A program made the translations under genes and the position numbers. DNA of 64,000 nt from Candidatus Nanoarchaeia archaeon (GTDB lineage Archaea; Nanobdellota; Nanobdellia; Woesearchaeales; GW2011-AR9): positions 621 through 64,620 of the forward strand of contig DATDWB010000027.1 in assembly GCA_035289845.1 (NCBI GenBank), in the 5' to 3' direction. Shown piece after piece: positions 4,255-58,253 of the stretch (positions are counted from its first letter, which is position 1; every line of letters begins with the position of its first letter). The notes under the pieces were generated by a model. That model worked only from the letters and a program-made list of their open reading frames with translations, was not told the origin of the DNA and ran no database searches.

Positions 4255-4439
4255 TAATTGGGTCTAATTTTATTAAGTTTTTGGTTAAATTAAGGTAATT
4301 GGGTTAAAAATACCCTTAAACATGCGGTTAAGGCTTGGGCCTAGTTATTAAAATAATACTTGTTGTGCCACCAAGCTGCTAGATGTAGACCGCAGCAATA
4401 AATAATAAAATTTAAAATCAACCTTATTATACCAAGGCT

Positions 4440-4790
4440 ATGGGTGTATTTGATAAACTGGCTTTTTGGAAAAAAAAGGATGAACTTGATTTTGATGAAC
4501 TGGCACGGAAAGAATATTCCCTGGATAGCACCCGAGGAAAAATACCTACTGATGATTTAGGATTAAATGAAAAATCCCTGTTTGAAACCGAATACCCAAC
4601 TTCCTCTCCCTCGCCTTTTTCTGCTACCCCGCCATCTTTTCCTTCATTCCGGGAAAGCAGCAGTTCCAAGGATCTAGACTTAATCAACAGCAAATTGGAT
4701 ACCATTAAAGCCCTTCTGTCCTCTTTAGATCAACGGTTAAACAATTTAGAGAAACAATCTAAAACTGAACAAAAACCCCGGTTATGGTAA
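4440..4790 (+). CDS. hypothetical protein (116 aa), directly upstream of lspA
   Basis: Ends 1 nt before the LspA start. Ser/Pro-rich middle and coiled-coil C-terminus. Preferred over the low-complexity antisense ORF 4427..4705. Confidence 0.35.
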   Translation: MGVFDKLAFWKKKDELDFDELARKEYSLDSTRGKIPTDDLGLNEKSLFETEYPTSSPSPFSATPPSFPSFRESSSSKDLDLINSKLDTIKALLSSLDQRLNNLEKQSKTEQKPRLW

Positions 4791-4791
4791 C

Positions 4792-5226
4792 ATGTCATCC
4801 TTAAGCCGGCCGGTAAAATTTTTTACTCTGATAACAATATCAATTGTATTGTTAGACCAATTGACCAAATACTTAGTTTTAACTTTAAAACCTAATCTTA
4901 ATCTAGGCCTATTATCTATCCATTATATTACCAATACTGGAGCCGGGTTTGGAATATTGAAAGGCCAGACTTTGCTCTTAGCCTTAATTTCCTTAATTGC
5001 AGCCTTAACCCTGATTATAGGTTATAAGAAGATTGATACCCAAAAAATTCCCCAAATTTTATTTGCCCTATTCCTAGGCGGAGTAATCGGAAATATGATC
5101 GACCGAGTTTTCCGCCACCAAGTTATAGACTATTTGGATTTTCATTTTTGGCCGGCGTTTAACTTAGCTGATTCGGCTATAACTGCGGCAGTAGCAGGGT
5201 TGATTATTTATTATTGGAAGAAGTAG
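4792..5226 (+). CDS. lspA: lipoprotein signal peptidase (signal peptidase II)
   Basis: Conserved LspA blocks 'DQLTKYLV', 'NTGAGFG', 'GGVIGNMIDRVF...VIDYLDF' and 'FNLADSAITAAVAGLII' (the GNxxDR and FNxAD catalytic Asp motifs). Four TM segments, 144 aa. Confidence 0.7.
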   Translation: MSSLSRPVKFFTLITISIVLLDQLTKYLVLTLKPNLNLGLLSIHYITNTGAGFGILKGQTLLLALISLIAALTLIIGYKKIDTQKIPQILFALFLGGVIGNMIDRVFRHQVIDYLDFHFWPAFNLADSAITAAVAGLIIYYWKK

Positions 5227-5232
5227 AAAAAA

Positions 5233-5550
5233 TTAAGTTAAAGATAATAAACCGGATCCAACTCGAGGTTCATTATCTTCCACTACCCTTAACCCGCCTT
5301 TCTCTGGAACAGAAAAACCAATCGATTGGGCTTTGCTTAATAAATATTCTTTTACCGTACCTGAATTTATTCGGGCAGAATGGTAAGCCTCACCATAATT
5401 ATTTACCTTAACCAATCGTTTTTCGATAGAATTTATCCCTATACTACCAATCAATCGGCATTCCTTTAAATCATAGGCTATCGACTGGACGGTTAATGGA
5501 ACATTTTCCAGATAATCATCAATTGATTTGCCGAAAGGGGATAATTTCAT
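5233..5550 (-). CDS. C-terminal continuation or partner of the upstream nucleotidyltransferase ORF
   Basis: Starts at the TAATG junction with ORF 5550..5870. Could be a frameshifted second half of one gene or a translationally coupled partner. Confidence 0.3.
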   Translation of the reverse strand: MKLSPFGKSIDDYLENVPLTVQSIAYDLKECRLIGSIGINSIEKRLVKVNNYGEAYHSARINSGTVKEYLLSKAQSIGFSVPEKGGLRVVEDNEPRVGSGLLSLT

Positions 5551-5870
5551 TAAGTCAAATTATAATTCTTTCCGCCTAAGGATAGTACTTTTACTGAATT
5601 ACAACTACCAACCAGAAATACCCCCATTCGCTTTTCTAATAATGGCAGATTGATTCCTTCAACTATAAAATCTAGATCTATTCCCTCTTTAATTGGTATA
5701 CCATATAGTTCTTGGATTATTGACCTATATAAGTAACCACCCACCAACCAAATATTGCCCGAGGCATATTTTCGAACAAAACTTAGCCTATCCAGAAATG
5801 CCTTACTGGCTGAAAATTTCAATTCAGAAGGTAATACTGCTTGCAGTGATTCGAAAGTATCTGGAAACAT
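5550..5870 (-). CDS. nucleotidyltransferase-fold protein, N-terminal part (possible split gene)
   Basis: Pol-beta-like NTase signature '...WLVGGYLYRS...GIDLDFIVEG' (G[GS]...DxD). Its stop overlaps the start of the next ORF by 1 nt (TAATG). Confidence 0.4.
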   Translation of the reverse strand: MFPDTFESLQAVLPSELKFSASKAFLDRLSFVRKYASGNIWLVGGYLYRSIIQELYGIPIKEGIDLDFIVEGINLPLLEKRMGVFLVGSCNSVKVLSLGGKNYNLT

Positions 5871-5946: not shown

Positions 5947-6672
5947 CTACTGCACACAACTATGAGCTTTGAAACTTTTATCCCAAGCTTCTTTCTTGGT
6001 CTTGAACCAAACTCGGCGTTCCTTAGCAATTTTCTTAGCCCAATCACACTTTGGTTCGTGAAAGATATTACTTCGGGCGCTAGCTACATATTTTCCGGGA
6101 GAATGTTTACCCACAGAAGCGGAAGATTTAGTGTCAGATGATCTAGCTTCTTTGAAACTTTCCTTAGATTCAACAATCTCAACTTTAGGAACAATTTCTT
6201 CGGAATCTTCCATTTCTAATTCATCATCAACCTCATCTTCGTCGTCATCAATAATCTCAACCTTAGGTTCTTCATAATCACCAGAATTTTTGGAGTTTAA
6301 ACCTGATTTGTCCTGAGGTGATTTTGAATCGTGATGGGAATCATCACAGCATCGCCTAGATTTACGGGGGAAACTAAAAATCCAACCCAATACCGCTAAG
6401 GCTACTAATACTGCATATAATTCCCCTTTCCAATGCCATAAAATTACCAAATTGATTAAGTATAGGGTAAACACCAAGAAAAAAAATACTGCTCCCCAGC
6501 GTCGATTGTAACCTACAAAACCAATCAGGGATAATAATAACAGTCCCAAAAAACCAGCTAATTCCAAACGGAAAAAGTTGCCGGAAGCATGAACAAATAT
6601 TTTAGCCAAAGCAAATAATAATACTGCTAAAATAACAGTAATAATTAATAATTTACCTTTGCCTGGAGTCAT
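5947..6672 (-). CDS. membrane protein with acidic linker and C-terminal Ada-like zinc-binding domain
   Basis: N-terminal TM helices, then a D/E-rich stretch. C-terminus 'YVASARSNIFHEPKCDWAKKIAKERRVWFKTKKEAWDKSFKAHSC' aligns with the Ada N-terminal metal-binding domain pattern (F.YAVRTTGIFCRPSC...NV.F...EA...GFRPC), with His replacing two Cys. Confidence 0.5.
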   Translation of the reverse strand: MTPGKGKLLIITVILAVLLFALAKIFVHASGNFFRLELAGFLGLLLLSLIGFVGYNRRWGAVFFFLVFTLYLINLVILWHWKGELYAVLVALAVLGWIFSFPRKSRRCCDDSHHDSKSPQDKSGLNSKNSGDYEEPKVEIIDDDEDEVDDELEMEDSEEIVPKVEIVESKESFKEARSSDTKSSASVGKHSPGKYVASARSNIFHEPKCDWAKKIAKERRVWFKTKKEAWDKSFKAHSCVQ

Positions 6673-10742: not shown

Positions 10743-12872
10743 ATGTCTCTGAAGAAAAAGGAAAAAGGCGCCGATTGGTTTACTGTAGAAGTTGATTCAA
10801 AGGGAATCCTAACCCATTATCCTAAAGATGCCCTCCACGGATTAAAATCTATCCGGCTGCAGGTAGATTACGAGCCGGAAGCCTTGTACCTTCAGCTAAC
10901 ACAGGGGAAAAAACTTCTTAGCTCAGCAGTAGTGGATGGATCTTTCTACGAAAACTTTGCCGAACAATTACGTAAGGGGGCAGTATTAGAATTGCAAACT
11001 TCAATCGTTCAGGAGACAGAAAATGATCCGCCCATTCCTCGGCTGAAGATAAATTCTTTAAGAATTAACACCGATAAGCAATGGTATCTAACCCACCGCA
11101 CTGCTTATACCTTAGAAGATTTAACCGAGATTAAAAGAGAAATAAGACGGCGGGATGCTTATTATGATTCCTTAGCAGTTAGAGATAAAAAAAAGCAGAT
11201 TAAAATTCTTCAAAGAACGGAAAATGATCTTGATTTAGAAGATAAAATATCAGGTAAATTGGTTGAAGAACGTGGAGAGGAAGTGGAAGATGAAGATTTT
11301 AAAGAAAATGATTCTTCCACTGCCGAGGATTACATTGGGGCATTTACTTACCCAGAAATTAAACGAATTTCGCGGCAGCTGGGAATTAGACGACCCAGAT
11401 CGCCTGCCTCACCGCCCAGTCAAGGTGGGGGAAAAATGAAAAGCAATTCTGATCCACTCCAAATTGATTCTTACAGCTTAATTGAACAAGACCTGTCAAA
11501 ATCCAAAATACTCTCCAAAGAATCTGAAATTCAACTTTGTAAAAAAATAGAATCAGCCAAAAATTTAATCCAAAAATTAGGTTCAGAATTACCAATAACC
11601 CTAGCGATGTATTTCCCAAGTGAAATGCCTAAGGCCCTATCCAAATCATTAGAGTTATTGCATCAATGGAAAATTAATTATAATAATACTAATAATGGTA
11701 ATGGTATACTGGAGGAATATTTTAATTTTAAACCGTTTGATTGCGACCCTGAAAAAATTACCCAAACCGAAATGGAATTAGAATCCATTATTAAATCCTG
11801 GAAGAAGTTAGGACTGCTGGGATCGCCAATATTAGATGAAGTTTTTAAAAATACAGATCCTGAAAATGTATCTTTTTTCTCAGAAAAATATATTAGACCT
11901 TTAGGTTCGCTAAGAGCATTAGCTAAGATACCTTTTAATTCCCAAGTTAAAAAAGAATTAATCCGCTGGGCGGTGGAAAGAGGATTACAGGACTATTTGC
12001 ATAAGAAATCACCCGAAGAATCTACTTATTACAGAAAACAAGGCAATGGCTTTAGATTAAACAGCAGCTATTTTATATCTAAATATATAGAGGGTGAAGT
12101 AAATTATAATCAGTTAGTGGGAGAATTTGCCAAAGCAAATATGCGGTTAGTTAGATCTTATGTTAACCGGTTTAGTGGTTATTGCTCGGGAGCAATTGCC
12201 CTTACCGATCTTTTCCAGGAAGGCAACCTGGGTCTGCTTAGAGCCATCAAAAAGTTTGACTGGCGGAAAGGTCATAAGTTTTCAACTTATGCTACTTGGT
12301 GGATCTACCAAGGAATTAGCAAGTATGCCAAAGATAACAACAGCTCAATTAGAATTCCCTTGCATCTCCAAGATAAAATTCATAACATCAAAAAATATTA
12401 TTCTAATTTTACTCAACTATATGACCGGGAGCCTACCGCAGAAGAATTAGATCTTGAATTTCCTCCCGGCCAGCAGGGAAAGAAGTCGGGAAGTGATATT
12501 CTAAAAGAAGCCCGTTCAGCAAAAGTTTATTCTCTTAATTCAAACATCAATACCGAAGATGACAGTGAAAAATTCAAGTTAGACAAATATATAGATGGAA
12601 ATGAAGAAAACTTGGTTGGGTTCATGGCAGTTGAAAAACAGTCTGAAACACAAGTTTATGACCAAGAACTGTTAGAAAAAAATAATAGGATTATTAGCGA
12701 GGTTTTGGGTAAACGAGAAGCAGAGATAATCCGTAAACGGTTTGGGTTGTATCCCTACCAAAAGATTTATACTTTAGAAGCTATCGGAAATACTTTTGGT
12801 CTAACCCGAGAACGGATTAGGCAGCTTGAACAAATATCTATGTTAAGGTTGAAGGAAAAAATCATAAAATAA
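10743..12872 (+). CDS. sigma-70 family RNA polymerase sigma factor (RpoD-like: regions 1.2, 2, 3, 4) with long N-terminal extension
   Basis: Region 1.2 'DPLQIDSYSLIEQDLSKSKILSKESEIQLCKKIE'. Region 2 'ANMRLVRSYVNRF...LTDLFQEGNLGLLRAIKKFDWRKGHKFSTYATWWIYQGISKYAKDNNSSIRIPLHLQDKIHNIKK'. Region 4.2 HTH 'VLGKREAEIIRKRFGLYPYQKIYTLEAIGNTFGLTRERIRQLEQISMLRLKEK'. Confidence 0.8.
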   Translation: MSLKKKEKGADWFTVEVDSKGILTHYPKDALHGLKSIRLQVDYEPEALYLQLTQGKKLLSSAVVDGSFYENFAEQLRKGAVLELQTSIVQETENDPPIPRLKINSLRINTDKQWYLTHRTAYTLEDLTEIKREIRRRDAYYDSLAVRDKKKQIKILQRTENDLDLEDKISGKLVEERGEEVEDEDFKENDSSTAEDYIGAFTYPEIKRISRQLGIRRPRSPASPPSQGGGKMKSNSDPLQIDSYSLIEQDLSKSKILSKESEIQLCKKIESAKNLIQKLGSELPITLAMYFPSEMPKALSKSLELLHQWKINYNNTNNGNGILEEYFNFKPFDCDPEKITQTEMELESIIKSWKKLGLLGSPILDEVFKNTDPENVSFFSEKYIRPLGSLRALAKIPFNSQVKKELIRWAVERGLQDYLHKKSPEESTYYRKQGNGFRLNSSYFISKYIEGEVNYNQLVGEFAKANMRLVRSYVNRFSGYCSGAIALTDLFQEGNLGLLRAIKKFDWRKGHKFSTYATWWIYQGISKYAKDNNSSIRIPLHLQDKIHNIKKYYSNFTQLYDREPTAEELDLEFPPGQQGKKSGSDILKEARSAKVYSLNSNINTEDDSEKFKLDKYIDGNEENLVGFMAVEKQSETQVYDQELLEKNNRIISEVLGKREAEIIRKRFGLYPYQKIYTLEAIGNTFGLTRERIRQLEQISMLRLKEKIIK

Positions 12873-40443: not shown

Positions 40444-40797
40444 TTATTTTATGAATCGTTTACTTTTAAATATTCCTAAAATTTTATGTAAATGCAGCTG
40501 GTAAGACAATACGAACCCGCCAACAAAGAACAGCATCACTCCCAGACGGCTGACCCAGATACTTCCACTTAAATAGCCTAAAAAGAACCCTAAAATTATC
40601 AAAACAAAGGGTAAAATTGGCTGCTTGAATCGTTTAAAGAAAAACATTCTTCCGGCCAGGAAACCACTTAAAAAAGCAGTTAAGAAACTGAAAAAGAAAT
40701 TTCTAAAAGTCACTGCCACCAAAAAACCGATCACTAACAAAAACAAGGCCAAGGTTTCCGGCCAGTGCAAATCATAACTAATTGATTTCTTAGCCAT
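40444..40797 (-). CDS. small membrane protein, hypothetical
   Basis: Three or four TM helices. Shares a stop/start junction with the next gene. Confidence 0.35.
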   Translation of the reverse strand: MAKKSISYDLHWPETLALFLLVIGFLVAVTFRNFFFSFLTAFLSGFLAGRMFFFKRFKQPILPFVLIILGFFLGYLSGSIWVSRLGVMLFFVGGFVLSYQLHLHKILGIFKSKRFIK

Positions 40798-41537
40798 TAT
40801 TTCTCCGAAGTTATCAAAATTAAAACTAAGGCCACCACTAAAGTCACAACTACCGAAATTATTAAACCTATTTTAGTTTTAGTCAATAATAATATGGCCG
40901 CCAGAACAGTCATTACAATAGAAGTATAATACAAGTTTCTAGAACCAAAAAACAAGTTCAATCCGTCTAACTGCGGGAAAGGCAGAAGGGAGCAGAAAGC
41001 CATAATTAAATTCAACATTAAACCTTTACTAAAAAAATAACTTTCCGGTGAAATGTAAGCTCCAATGGCAAATAATATAGCCAAAACGATATTGGCACAA
41101 ATCCCCCAGATAGATATTACTGCTCCATCGCCTAACGAAAAACCATATCTAAACTCACCCAACCTTTGCCGGATCATTAACGCGGAAGTTAGGCCACCAA
41201 CCAAGACTAAAGGAATTATCCCCAAAGACATAAAAGCTACCACCAAGGCGATAACTAAACCGGCTAGCCAGACTTTAAATTCAGATTTATATCCTTCCCT
41301 AAGTGCATAAGTTTTTTGCAGGGACAAACGAAATAAGAAAGTGATTCCAGTTATTAGAATCATCACTAACAGATTTCTCAGACCCAAAGCCAGATCAAAA
41401 TAATCTCCTGAACCCCAATCTCGAAAGGAAAAAATAAAGGCCGTGACCACTATAGCCAAAGCCAATCCACCAATTTCCGGTTTGCTGAAAGTAAAAAAAT
41501 CCTTTATTCTAGCTCTTAATTCGCTACTGCTTACCAC
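40797..41537 (-). CDS. polytopic membrane protein, hypothetical
   Basis: 246 aa with about 6 TM helices. Confidence 0.4.
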   Translation of the reverse strand: MVSSSELRARIKDFFTFSKPEIGGLALAIVVTAFIFSFRDWGSGDYFDLALGLRNLLVMILITGITFLFRLSLQKTYALREGYKSEFKVWLAGLVIALVVAFMSLGIIPLVLVGGLTSALMIRQRLGEFRYGFSLGDGAVISIWGICANIVLAILFAIGAYISPESYFFSKGLMLNLIMAFCSLLPFPQLDGLNLFFGSRNLYYTSIVMTVLAAILLLTKTKIGLIISVVVTLVVALVLILITSEK

Positions 41538-42647: not shown

Positions 42648-45113
42648 CTAAACTAATTCTTCCGGACCGTCCGGAGGTGCATCTTCCTCGATCAATATTT
42701 TAGCCGAAGCAGCCAACTGGTCAGCATCATTCAAGCGCATTACTCTTACACCCTGGGTAGATCTTCCAATAAGTGAAATATCTGAACTTTTAATTCTTAT
42801 CCCAATACCCTGCTTAGATACCAGCATTACTTCCTCGTTTCCGTCAACTAACATGACCGCTTTAACCAACCCATTTTTATCCGTTATCTTAATGTTAGTT
42901 ACTCCTTTACCCCCCCGATTGCACAATCTATAATCGGCTACCGGAGTTCGTTTTCCATAACCCTTTTCAGTTAAGGTTAAAATGTTTTTAGTTTCGTCCG
43001 CGGCTAACATCCCAATAACTTTATCGCCTTCACTTAATCTTATTCCCCTAACTCCCCTAGCCGTTCGGCCCATAACCCTAACTGCACTTTCCCTAAATCT
43101 ATTAGCCTGGCCTTCTCGAGTGGCCAAAATTATTTCCTTGCTGCCATCCGTATATAAAACATTAACTAGATGATCATCATCTAATGTTATAGCGCGTATA
43201 CCGCCGCTTCTGGGACGAGAAAAGTCCATTAACTCGGTTTTTTTTACTGTTCCATTCTCAGTAGCCATGAATAAATATCCTTCCGCAAAATCACGCACTG
43301 GAATTATAGCATTAATCTTCTCTTCCGGCCGTAACTCTAAAATATTGGCCAGATGTTTTCCTTTACCCTGCCGAGTAGATTCGGGGATTTGATAAACCTT
43401 TAACCAATAAACCTGCCCAATATCAGTAAAGCATAATAAATAAGCGTGGGTGGAAGTAATATACAATTGTTCAATAAAATCTTCATCTTTCATCCCAGCA
43501 GCAATAACTCCCTTACCCCCTCTTTTCTGAGTTTTATAGGTGTCAATCGGTAGGCGTTTAACATACCCAGAATTAGTCATAGTAACTACCACAGTATGTT
43601 CTTCAATTAATTCTTCCAGATCTACCTCTTCATCTTCCCCGGGAACTAACTGCGATCGCCTCTCATCACCATAATTAGTTTTAATATCTTCCAATTCTTC
43701 TTTTATTAATTGTTTAACTAATTCATCTGAGGATAAGATTTGACGGTAATAAACTATTTTTTCTAAGAGCTCGGTATGTTCGGACCTAATTTTTTCCTGC
43801 TCTAAGGAAGCTAACTTTTGCAACCTTAAATCCAAGATAGCTTTAGCCTGCAGATCGGATAGGGGATAATTATTCATCAAAAATTCTTTGGCATCTTCAA
43901 CTGTCCGGCTATTTCTTATTCCGGGAATAACTTGATCTAAATTATTAAGAGCAATGAGCAAACCTTCCAAGATATGGACCCTATTTTCAGCCTGGTTAAG
44001 GTCGTACTTAGTTCGACGAAGAATTATTTCAGTACGGTGGGTAATATGATAATTTAAGAAGTCTTTCAATCCGACTACCACCGGCTGATTATCTACCAGC
44101 GCCAGCATGTTGATACCAAAAGAAACTTTTAACCGGCTGTGTTTATAGAGCTGATTTAATATTACATTGCCATCAGTATCCCGCTTCAAATCTATAACCA
44201 CTCTTATCCCATCTTGATCTGATTCATCGTTAATGTTCCTAATCCCACTTATAACCTTATCCCGAACTAAATCAGCTATCTGTCCAATCAATTCCTCCTT
44301 ATTTACCTGATAGGGTATCTCAGAAATTATTATCTGTTCATCCTTAACTTGACAAACTGATTTGATGGAAACCTTCCCCTTCCCAGTAACGTAAGCCTGC
44401 AGCAAGGAATTACCAGTAGAAACAATGCCCCCAGTAGGGAAATCGGGAGCAGGGAGTATGCTCATAAGTTCATTAATTGTAATTTGCGGATTATTAATGG
44501 AAGCAATTAGGGCGTTGCATACTTCTAGGACATTATGAGGAGGAATATTAGTGGCCATCCCCACCGCAATGCCTGAAGAACCGTTGACCAATAAATTAGG
44601 CAGTTTGGAAGGTAAAACTTCCGGTTCTTTCAAAGAAGCATCGAAATTGTCCCTAAAATTAACCGTTTCTTTCTCAATGTCTTTAAGCATCTCTTCAGCC
44701 AATTTACTTAACTTAGCTTCGGTATACCGCATAGCCGCAGCGGAATCACCATCGATACTGCCAAAATTGCCCTGCCCCTTAATTAGAGGATACCGCAGAG
44801 AGAAATCCTGAGCCATCCGAACTAAAGAATCATAGACTGCTGTATCTCCATGAGGATGGTATTTACCCAAAACTTCCCCCACTATCCGAGCACTTTTCTT
44901 GAAGGGCTTATTATGAAACATTCCCAGATCGTACATAGAATACATAATTCGCCGGTGAACTGGTTTAAGGCCATCTCTAATATCCGGCAGAGCCCGGCCC
45001 ACAATGACCGACATGGCATAATTTACATAGGCGGTCTTCATCTCCTCCTCAATTACTCTAGGGACTACCCGAGGAGTATTGGGCAAGGGCTGATTGGTGT
45101 CGGATGGATCCAT
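42648..45113 (-). CDS. gyrA: DNA gyrase subunit A
   Basis: '[33 protein letters not shown]', '[63 protein letters not shown]' (active-site Tyr region), and C-terminal beta-pinwheel repeats. Confidence 0.9.
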
Positions 45114-46643: not shown

Positions 46644-47420
46644 ATGATAAAAGAATTGAATTATGCCCTAGGAATAGTGTTAATCGCAGTAGTATTTATT
46701 ATCTCCAACCTTTTATTTGTGCCTGATATTTCAGCAGTTGAAGATGTTATTTTAACTAAAGGAGCCCATCGGGGAAGTTCAGTGTATAACATAGAAAACA
46801 GTATGCTGGCGTTTCAGGAAGCCCTAAATAATCCCCAATACAAATTCATTGAATTTGATATCCAATACACCCAAGACAAAAAAATAATTGTGTATCATGA
46901 CTTATCTTTACTAAGATTACAGGGCAAGGCCGTTGAAGTTAGTGATTTAAGCTACGAGGAATTAGAAGCCATTAATGATTATCTAATACCAACTTATAAT
47001 GAGGCCATGGATCTTATAGGATCTAAAAAAGTAGTTAATGTAGAAATTAAATCCCAAGGTAATTTGAGCGAGGATCAAGAACTGGTTGATTTTATTGTTG
47101 CGGATTCTACAGAGAGAGGAATTGTAAATACAATCTTAATAAGTTCCATTTCTTCTGAAGTAGTGGATTATATCAACTTAACTTACCCTAAGATAAAAAC
47201 TGGCAAGATTTATTGGATTACGCCGGTTACATTTCTGCCGCTGGATTATTTAGTTAAAGAGATTTATAATTCAACTAAAGATATAGGGGCAGATTATTTA
47301 ATGCTGCATGGAGTTAATTTAAAGAATTATACTCTATGGGCAAAACTTAAACCGGAAAATGTTAATTTAGCCTTCTGGTACTTTGATGATCAGATGTATT
47401 TGTTGGGAGAATCTAATTGA
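46644..47420 (+). CDS. glycerophosphodiester phosphodiesterase family protein with N-terminal TM
   Basis: 'GAHRGSSVYNIENSMLAFQEALNN...IEFDIQYTQDKKIIVYHD' is the GDPD signature. Confidence 0.8.
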   Translation: MIKELNYALGIVLIAVVFIISNLLFVPDISAVEDVILTKGAHRGSSVYNIENSMLAFQEALNNPQYKFIEFDIQYTQDKKIIVYHDLSLLRLQGKAVEVSDLSYEELEAINDYLIPTYNEAMDLIGSKKVVNVEIKSQGNLSEDQELVDFIVADSTERGIVNTILISSISSEVVDYINLTYPKIKTGKIYWITPVTFLPLDYLVKEIYNSTKDIGADYLMLHGVNLKNYTLWAKLKPENVNLAFWYFDDQMYLLGESN

Positions 47421-56535: not shown

Positions 56536-57255
56536 ATGGAAAATGAGAATTTGAATGTATTGAATGTTGCTAAAGGTAAAGCTCCATCAAATAGAAACAA
56601 TTTGTTGCTGGTTGCTTCCTTAATTCAAATAGTTTTACTGATTGTAGTGATTTCAAAACTGGGCGTAAATACTACTTCCCCAACTGGTGGAGTGGTAGTG
56701 GACGATTCTTTGCCCTCACCCACTGTTCCCTTAGACATGCAAGCATTAATTGATGATGATGCCATTAAAGGTGACCCTAAAGCCCCGGTTACAATAATCG
56801 AATTTAGCGATTTTGAGTGTCCATTCTGCGGTCGATTTTATACTGAAACCCTAGGAAAAATTGATGAAAAATATATCAAAACTGGAAAAGTCAGGCTAGT
56901 CTATCGGGATTTCCCTTTAAGTTTCCATCCTCAAGCTCAAAAAGCAGCTGAAACAGCTGAATGTGCTGGCGACCAAAACAAGTACTATGATATGCACGAT
57001 AAATTGTTTGAACTGGGTGTTAGTGGAGGAGTCGCTTCCTTTAAGCAGTATGCTAAAGATTTAGGTTTAGACACCGCTAAATTTAACGCCTGCTTAGATT
57101 CAGGAGAGAAGGCCGCTGAAATAAGCAATGATTTCATTGACGGACAAAATGCAGGAATTCAAGGTACGCCCGGATTTATTGTAAATGGGATTATGATCTC
57201 GGGAGCACAGCCTTACCAAGTATTTGAGCAAGTGATTGAATCATTACTTAAATAA
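56536..57255 (+). CDS. DsbA-like thiol:disulfide oxidoreductase with N-terminal membrane anchor
   Basis: TM anchor, then thioredoxin-fold 'VTIIEFSDFECPFCGRFY' (CPFC) and 'GTPGFIVNG' cis-Pro loop region. Confidence 0.75.
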   Translation: MENENLNVLNVAKGKAPSNRNNLLLVASLIQIVLLIVVISKLGVNTTSPTGGVVVDDSLPSPTVPLDMQALIDDDAIKGDPKAPVTIIEFSDFECPFCGRFYTETLGKIDEKYIKTGKVRLVYRDFPLSFHPQAQKAAETAECAGDQNKYYDMHDKLFELGVSGGVASFKQYAKDLGLDTAKFNACLDSGEKAAEISNDFIDGQNAGIQGTPGFIVNGIMISGAQPYQVFEQVIESLLK

Positions 57256-57335
57256 AAATTTTATTTTTTTAATTTTTGTGTTTATTTAATATTAATAATT
57301 TGGGATTGATTTTAAAAAAGATTTATTGATTAAAA

Positions 57336-57878
57336 TTACTTTTTGATTATACATACCTTAGTGGTTATCTTATTAGCTAAATAAAACAGGGATAACACTA
57401 AAATTATTACTGCTAGGAAGCCTAGTTCCAGCCCCTTAAAGGGAAGAAATCCTAATATACTACTTAACCCTAAAACACTAAAAATACTTAAGGCACAACT
57501 AGGGCAGGCTGGGACTATAATTGCAGCAATAATTCCGGTCAAGCCTGTTCCAGCCGATGAACCAGTTCCAGATAGGGATAACTTTTTCTCATGGAGCTGC
57601 TTCCTTAAAAGATAGATACTGCCTGAAAACACTACTCCTCCCAATAAACAGATTAATATTATAAATATCAAAGCGGGCAGGGGAAGCAGCATTATCCAAC
57701 CGACAATCAGATAAAAAACTAATTTTAGGCTAAAATTAGACCATAAGAGGTGATAATTAATAATTAACCCGTTGGTTACAAAAACTATTAAAGCAAAACT
57801 GAAGGTTAAGATAAAATAACTTTTTTGAGAATATACTTGAATTAAAGCTTCCCAAGTTAAAGTCAAATATTTTTTCAT
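57336..57878 (-). CDS. small polytopic membrane protein with intramembrane CPSC motif (candidate membrane thiol-disulfide oxidoreductase or metal-binding protein)
   Basis: Four or five TM helices with 'IIVPACPSCALSIFSVLG' inside a helix. No loop Cys pair, so not a canonical VKOR/DsbB. Confidence 0.35.
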   Translation of the reverse strand: MKKYLTLTWEALIQVYSQKSYFILTFSFALIVFVTNGLIINYHLLWSNFSLKLVFYLIVGWIMLLPLPALIFIILICLLGGVVFSGSIYLLRKQLHEKKLSLSGTGSSAGTGLTGIIAAIIVPACPSCALSIFSVLGLSSILGFLPFKGLELGFLAVIILVLSLFYLANKITTKVCIIKK

Positions 57879-57908
57879 AAGTTAGATGCAACCGTATTCC
57901 CTAAAGAT

Positions 57909-58253
57909 TTATTCTAATAAGCATCCGCTGCGTAAACTTAAATCTTCCAATGATAACTTGCCTACCTCCCTAGTCCCATCCTCAAATACCCAAGTGGGGT
58001 AAGAAGTTATGCCGGCAAAATTGCAAACTTCTCTTTGCCCGCCACCTTCCAGAGCGCATTCAATATAGTTAACTTCACTAAAACTGCTTCCAAAGAGAAG
58101 TTTTTGTTCTTTACAATGCGGACACCAATCTGCCCCATACATTTTAACACCTTTTTCAGTCAAACATTGAGCAAATTCTTTGCTGGCTCCGTTGCAGCTA
58201 ATTAAAAAGATGGTCAAAACAGCCATTAATAAAATTAAATACGTTTTTTTCAT
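57909..58253 (-). CDS. thioredoxin-like lipoprotein (lipobox LISC, CPHC active site)
   Basis: Signal 'LILLMAVLTIFLISC' ends in a lipobox-like L-I-S-C. 'YGADWCPHCKEQK' thioredoxin motif. Confidence 0.6.
   Translation of the reverse strand: MKKTYLILLMAVLTIFLISCNGASKEFAQCLTEKGVKMYGADWCPHCKEQKLLFGSSFSEVNYIECALEGGGQREVCNFAGITSYPTWVFEDGTREVGKLSLEDLSLRSGCLLE

Follow-up and report, generated by a model that had tools for sequence, protein, structure and literature searches.

A bacterial-type lipoprotein signal peptidase gene in a Nanoarchaeia archaeon and its predicted lipobox-bearing substrates

The stretch of DNA considered here, hereafter the window, comprises 64,000 nucleotides (positions 621 to 64,620 of contig DATDWB010000027.1, assembly GCA_035289845.1) of a Candidatus Nanoarchaeia archaeon, and it carries, among archaeal genes and directly behind a small lineage-specific open reading frame (ORF), a gene for the lipoprotein signal peptidase LspA, together with three genes for predicted lipoprotein precursors (Table 1). 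The lspA reading frame was confirmed, with an ATG start and an end coordinate that takes in the stop codon, and its product is a true bacterial-type LspA by every profile test. It matches Pfam PF01252 (Peptidase_A8) with E=1.5e-32 and 113.2 bits (gathering cutoff 25 bits), covering model positions 1-141 of 142, and the NCBIfam equivalog model TIGR00077 (lspA) with 108.2 bits, above the cutoff of 73.95 bits. A phmmer search of the Protein Data Bank (PDB) returned LspA chains only, including 6ryo from Staphylococcus aureus (E=3e-14) and 9emz and 5dir from Pseudomonas aeruginosa (~2e-12). The preliminary description of this DNA, which had set profile failure as one of its two refuting tests, was therefore right about the identity of the protein, and the NCBI entry for it, 'signal peptidase II [Candidatus Nanoarchaeia archaeon]', is a correct automated annotation.

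Fourteen highly conserved LspA residues have been catalogued for the S. aureus enzyme (D21, K25, N52, G54, G102, N106, D109, R110, V116, D118, F132, N133, A135 and D136), and the D118/D136 dyad was shown by mutagenesis (PMC6952399). When these positions are transferred to the window LspA through the phmmer PDB alignments, 14 of 14 are conserved (D22, K26, N48, G50, G97, N101, D104, R105, V111, D113, F123, N124, A126 and D127), and the catalytic dyad falls on D113, within 'QVIDYLDF', and D127, within 'FNLADSAI'. Two peptide blocks had earlier been quoted as catalytic, GGVIGNMIDRVF and 'FNLADSAI'. Both are present and the second does hold D127, but the first carries only G97, N101, D104 and R105 of the conserved set and no catalytic Asp; because the mapping puts the first catalytic Asp in the next block, GGVIGNMIDRVF is better read as a conserved substrate-pocket block. 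All 14 residues are invariant among 26 aligned archaeal homologs, in which column identity averages just 58%, and this points to purifying selection on the active site. An AlphaFold2 model built from the archaeal alignment (predicted local distance difference test score, pLDDT, 90.4; predicted template modelling score, pTM, 0.83) has four transmembrane (TM) helices and a beta-cradle, with helices at residues 8-32, 60-80, 85-108 and 125-143 and strands at 35-48 and 111-123. In a Foldseek search of this model against the PDB the significant matches are all LspA, with a TM-score of 0.85 and a root-mean-square deviation of 2.2 A for 6ryp/6ryo, and TM-scores of 0.76-0.80 for 5dir.

The potential substrates were approached through the lipobox, strictly defined as [LVI][ASTVI][GAS]C. 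All three precursors in Table 1, which the preliminary description had singled out, have a K/R n-region, an h-region and then a motif that fits this strict definition, and they represent 3 of the roughly 10 signal- or anchor-bearing proteins of the window (binomial P ~3e-5). The survey took in the window and 80 further loci, namely the best 80 of at least 563 stretches encoding LspA relatives that emerged from a scan in which each GTDB species was represented by one genome. It covered 1,603 ORFs, and an N-terminus was called signal-like when it had a hydrophobic stretch in a protein with no more than two TM segments. Strict lipoboxes occur at 27 of 232 signal-like N-termini vs 3 of 1,371 other N-termini. 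Cys follows the tripeptide [LVI][ASTVI][GAS] in 13.7% of cases at signal-like ends and in 0.77% elsewhere in the same proteins, an 18-fold enrichment (odds ratio 20, Fisher p=6.5e-22), and it is the commonest residue in that place at signal-like ends; the lipobox frequency is thus above random expectation, as had been anticipated. The lipobox Cys has a median position of 21, K/R residues number about two per n-region, twin-Arg motifs are absent, and S, T, G and P abound in the region that follows the Cys, features by which these N-termini are predicted to be textbook Sec-type lipoprotein signal peptides. The three genes were also described as lying near lspA; they are 26-53 kb away and not clustered with it, so this supposed proximity is without significance.

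Some arrangements of lipobox genes were noted in passing. In three of the related loci (L005, 1051-3940; L025, 14-3856; L064, 361-2274), two or three genes for lipobox proteins of ~300 aa stand in tandem a few kb upstream of lspA, and their products look like duplicated substrate-binding-type lipoproteins. In the window, positions 56536-58253 form an extracytoplasmic thiol-redox cluster of DsbA-like, 5-TM and CPHC lipoprotein genes.

That a bacterial-type LspA is present in an archaeon, as the preliminary description held, is confirmed by the archaeal core genes that flank lspA on the same contig. Archaeal markers in the window include both subunits (A and B) of Topo VI, a Hef-type helicase/ERCC4 nuclease, a diphthamide-synthase fusion, RIO1, NFACT, eIF-1A, HerA and a DnaG-type Toprim protein. 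The contig was followed for ~20 kb beyond the window (total ~83 kb), and genes for prefoldin, RpoP, Hjc, TFE, aIF2-beta and PolD DP2 are found there. Proteins neighbouring the window LspA carry NCBI locus tags beginning VJC39_. The gene order of the window recurs around LspA homologs on contigs of 1.56 Mb and 156 kb, the shared order being RTC, aEF-1beta, Trm1, aIF5B, small ORF, lspA, eIF-1A, PD-(D/E)XK nuclease, SpoIIM, LemA, M48 peptidase, HerA and DnaG. The best 80 of the at least 563 matching stretches all belong to archaeal metagenome-assembled genomes (MAGs) labelled Woesearchaeota, Nanoarchaeota, Nanoarchaeia or with the placeholder 'uncultured Methanosarcinales', and in loci under this last label the module markers are equally frequent and the guanine-plus-cytosine (GC) content is similar to that of the other loci. 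One MAG, DATDUF01 (SMAG_U8050; L045 and L053), has an LspA gene on each of two contigs, which may mean that the gene has a paralog or that the bin mixes strains.

New here is the conserved pairing of lspA with the lineage-specific small ORF in front of it. The protein of this ORF begins with a conserved amphipathic segment (MGVFxKLAFWKK) and has a conserved helix at its C-terminus (DLDLINSKLDTIKAxL...RLW), with a variable linker rich in Pro and Ser between the two; profile scans gave no Pfam or NCBIfam match for it. Its family comprises 41 matches, all of them 'hypothetical' proteins of Woesearchaeota/Nanoarchaeia. Of 75 loci, 56 have the C-terminal motif 32-139 nt upstream of lspA and on its strand; in two of the related loci (L001 and L003) the homolog overlaps lspA by 7 nt, and the alignment shows the N-terminus and the C-terminal helix to be common to them. 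Even after the members that have diverged furthest (33-38% identity), a Peptidase_A8 gene comes next, whether or not the outer flanks are rearranged. A stretch reading aaataataaaatttaaaa...ttattata sits 8-40 nt ahead of the ATG at 4440, and a comparable spacer before lspA is absent; this TATA-like stretch is the presumed promoter of both the small ORF and lspA, which would then be co-transcribed.

On the other side, the convergent 4-TM gene has homologs adjoining lspA in 70 of ~80 related loci, and its protein gave no Pfam or NCBIfam family in the scans; its tie to lspA appears to be syntenic only. A 'GNFFxLE' stretch in this protein was considered as an Lgt-like motif and rejected, as it is not conserved across the 70-member family. 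Two ORFs of ~105 aa located between lspA and the 4-TM gene (5233-5870, minus strand) are missing from most relatives, and one of them (5550-5870) resembles by eye a nucleotidyltransferase head (GG...DxD); a split or degraded inserted gene may lie here.

Table 1. Features of the window around lspA and genes for predicted lipoproteins and their redox neighbours.
Feature	Coordinates	Strand	Details
A/T-rich TATA-like stretch, presumed archaeal promoter of the two-gene unit	4400-4431	+	inferred from the letters
Lineage-specific small ORF, 116 aa	4440-4790	+	stop codon ends 1 nt ahead of the lspA ATG
lspA (lipoprotein signal peptidase, signal peptidase II, MEROPS family A8)	4792-5226	+	144 aa; profiles, PDB matches, AlphaFold2 model
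4-TM protein with acidic linker and C-terminal Cys/His (Ada-like zinc-binding) domain, YHxPxC...HxC	5947-6672	-	convergent neighbour of lspA
Predicted Sec-type lipoprotein precursor, 456 aa	31156-32526	+	...LTLTAC, lipobox LTAC, Cys27; weakly similar to amidohydrolases; C-terminus rich in Cys
Predicted lipoprotein precursor, 144 aa	33032-33466	+	...SLSAC, lipobox LSAC, Cys24
DsbA-like protein with N-terminal anchor	56536-57255	+	thiol-redox cluster
5-TM protein, CPSC within a TM helix	57336-57878	-	thiol-redox cluster
Predicted lipoprotein precursor, 114 aa, thioredoxin-like, CPHC motif	57909-58253	-	...FLISC, lipobox LISC, Cys20

The window holds other features of interest. A 709-aa protein of the sigma-70 family (Sigma70_r2/r4) is encoded in this archaeal genome at 10743-12872 (plus strand), its best NCBIfam matches being MzaA and RpoD at ~173 bits, far below the equivalog cutoffs; the gene looks inserted between those for the M48 peptidase and HerA, because the syntenic position in locus L003 lacks it. 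Another bacterial-type gene, for the DNA gyrase A subunit, is present alongside Topo VI (42648-45113, minus strand). A signal- or anchor-bearing glycerophosphodiester phosphodiesterase (46644-47420, plus strand) may bear on the scavenging of lipids or head groups by an organism whose own lipid synthesis is limited. The 6-TM protein at 40797-41537 (minus strand) has an S2P/M50-like 'PFPQLDGLNLF' stretch, with no HExxH seen by eye and no Pfam match, and may be an inactive or divergent relative of site-2 proteases. Scans of the window for tRNA genes and Rfam families found nothing.

Regarding the origin of lspA, its GC content is 0.363 compared with 0.376+/-0.024 for the genes of the window, its codon usage is mid-rank, and across 61 genomes the pairwise distances of LspA correlate with those of eIF-1A (r=0.59, Mantel p=0.001). 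Native composition, co-divergence with eIF-1A and synteny together indicate that lspA has long been resident in this DPANN lineage; to judge from these three signals, it is an old gene, inherited vertically and not recently imported. The same signals and the lineage-wide presence of the gene speak against a recent acquisition by this genome. An exhaustive search of cluster representatives returned 16,297 at E<=1e-3 and only 7 at E<=1e-30. The named representatives down to ~40% identity are Woesearchaeota, and Bacillota and Chloroflexota LspAs appear at ~40-43% identity. A neighbour-joining tree of 164 LspA sequences is ladder-like, with few representatives named, and the attempt to identify a bacterial donor from it failed. 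Since all the named archaeal matches fall within one DPANN group, an ancient transfer from bacteria into the ancestor of the lineage, followed by vertical inheritance, seems the likelier history. It is rather unlikely that LspA was instead ancestral in this archaeal lineage, or older still, and was lost from other archaea; such a history would suit the deep diversity of the archaeal clade, whose Woesearchaeota-named sequences reach down to that ~40% identity, and the lack of a donor in the tree, and it would also fit the co-divergence with eIF-1A and the full amelioration of the gene. This alternative concerns the origin alone.

As for function, LspA, an enzyme inhibited by globomycin and myxovirescin, normally acts only on a Cys that is already lipidated, and the enzyme responsible for that step was sought in the window and its extension (~64-84 kb of this genome) and in ~20 kb per relative (+/-10 kb of lspA), or ~2% of each genome. 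Neither Lgt (PF01790) nor DUF63, the AliA type, was detected by Pfam among the multi-TM proteins of the window, and AliA-like NCBIfam models gave no match on the unannotated membrane proteins. A PROSITE-like signature of Lgt had 0 matches in 1.26 Mb of archaeal DNA (the window plus the lspA flanks from 80 genomes), and Escherichia coli Lgt, with a query sequence identical to PDB 5azb, returned nothing below E=0.05 from the same 1.26 Mb by phmmer and tblastn. Representatives of 18 multi-TM clusters from the 80 loci had no Pfam match to LGT or DUF63, and neither Lgt nor DUF63 was seen in the ~20 kb of contig beyond the window. The lipidation step could be carried out by an Lgt-like enzyme, by one of the archaeal AliA/DUF63 type or by a novel one.

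Taken together, the family profiles, the conserved active site, the modelled fold, the archaeal setting and the enriched lipoboxes indicate that ORF 4792-5226 probably encodes a functional lipoprotein signal peptidase of this Woesearchaeota/Nanoarchaeia (DPANN) archaeon. In the proposed mechanism, Sec-type precursors with a short K/R n-region, an h-region and a lipobox (L/I/V-x-S/A/G-Cys), a class of substrate seen in the sequence, would be exported, and the lipobox Cys would receive its lipid from a transferase (Lgt-like, AliA/DUF63-like or novel) whose gene lies elsewhere in the genome. LspA would then take up the signal peptide among its TM helices and, by means of Asp113 and Asp127, cut just before the lipid-modified Cys, a step proposed because active site and fold are completely conserved; the lipid would keep the mature protein anchored at the outer face of the cytoplasmic membrane. 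Several points weigh against this reading. Archaeal membranes are normally made of isoprenoid ether lipids, which raises the question of whether this LspA would accept a Cys modified in such a way; no Lgt or DUF63 is found in the searched DNA (~2% of each genome), and LspA normally depends on lipidation; signal peptides were called by a crude hydrophobicity rule and not by SignalP or LipoP; and the ladder-like tree does not settle the direction of transfer or the donor. Of the acquired bacterial-like lipoprotein pathway that had been proposed from the letters of the window, the LspA and the enriched set of lipoboxes hold good; the Lgt step was not found in the DNA searched, and lspA is no recent acquisition.

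The lack of Lgt and AliA in that ~2% of each genome could also be explained if this enzyme, still an active aspartyl peptidase of family A8, had taken on a task other than the maturation of lipidated lipoproteins, for instance the clearing or processing of non-lipidated signal peptides, or protection against globomycin- or myxovirescin-like antibiotics in the role of a decoy or resistance copy. The compactness of the enzyme (141-152 aa), with its short deletions in extracellular loops relative to the solved bacterial LspAs, and its coupling to a small protein that is specific to the lineage and is not seen alongside lspA in bacteria speak in the same direction. Nevertheless, the archaeal enzyme keeps all 14 residues that contact substrate and inhibitor, the genomes that carry it are strongly enriched in canonical lipobox substrates, and the gene occurs as a single copy per locus in a housekeeping neighbourhood and not in a biosynthetic cluster; recruitment to another task is thus quite improbable. 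The explanation that lspA is bacterial DNA misjoined to an archaeal contig or bin can be dismissed as scarcely credible, since the fact that LspA is otherwise a bacterial family, with the Bacillota and Chloroflexota sequences mentioned above, is outweighed by archaeal core genes on both sides within the window and the extended contig, by a native composition and, effectively as a refutation, by a small ORF-lspA-4TM-eIF-1A order shared by 80 independent archaeal MAGs that many different studies produced, contigs of 0.4-1.56 Mb included.

If lspA does encode a working lipoprotein signal peptidase, one may tentatively picture a hybrid pathway in Woesearchaeales-type DPANN, in which a transferase other than Lgt, either archaeal or novel, would lipidate the lipobox Cys, possibly using scavenged or ether lipids, and a bacterial-derived LspA with its small partner protein would take off the signal peptide. 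This is a doubtful proposition as yet, but, if true, it would provide the first archaeal lipoprotein signal peptidase to be identified, as well as an LspA able to take an anchor other than diacylglyceryl. More broadly, an enzyme recognizing lipid-modified Cys, long kept in archaea that largely scavenge lipids, would bear on the 'lipid divide'.

Archaeal lipoproteins are abundant and their maturation machinery is largely obscure, the lipidation proteins AliA and AliB having been found only in 2024-25. AliA corresponds to HVO_2859, a DUF63 protein of arCOG02177, and DPANN are rich in predicted lipoproteins and hold arCOG02177 'with some gaps' (PMC12462473). The archaeal lipoprotein literature, with reviews up to 2025, knows of no homolog of SPase II, Lsp or Lgt in archaea (PMC6098224, PMC7613921, PMC12462473), which agrees with the statement in the preliminary description that such homologs are generally not reported. 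The AliA/AliB paper likewise states that archaea have no Lsp homolog and that the signal peptidase of that pathway is still being sought (PMC12462473). In the literature searched, no earlier report of LspA in Woesearchaeota, DPANN or archaea was found. A lineage-wide LspA with an intact active site in DPANN contradicts the blanket statement that there is no archaeal Lsp, and it offers a directly testable entry point into archaeal lipoprotein maturation.

Comparison with known systems places these features in context. The lipobox motif and a lipid-anchored Cys in archaeal proteins are shared with the AliA/AliB system of Haloferax volcanii, but AliA and AliB act at lipidation and are unrelated to LspA, and no DUF63 protein was found in the window or the related loci. 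Set against the canonical bacterial Lgt-LspA-(Lnt) pathway, the LspA step and the Sec-type signal peptides look true to type here, whereas the DNA covered yielded neither Lgt nor Lnt. The window LspA belongs to the same family as the bacterial enzymes of S. aureus (6RYO/6RYP) and P. aeruginosa (5DIR/6FMS), with ~31-32% identity to the solved structures, and it shares with them the four-TM and beta-cradle fold, the Asp dyad, the 14 conserved residues and the lipobox consensus. It is shorter, at 144 aa vs ~155-190, with deletions of 4-5 residues in two loops, that of the beta-cradle and the one ahead of TM4, and its gene lies in an archaeal host beside a lineage-specific small ORF, in contrast to the ileS-lspA arrangement of bacteria. 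The family is therefore one already known, and what is unusual is its archaeal host and its prevalence there.
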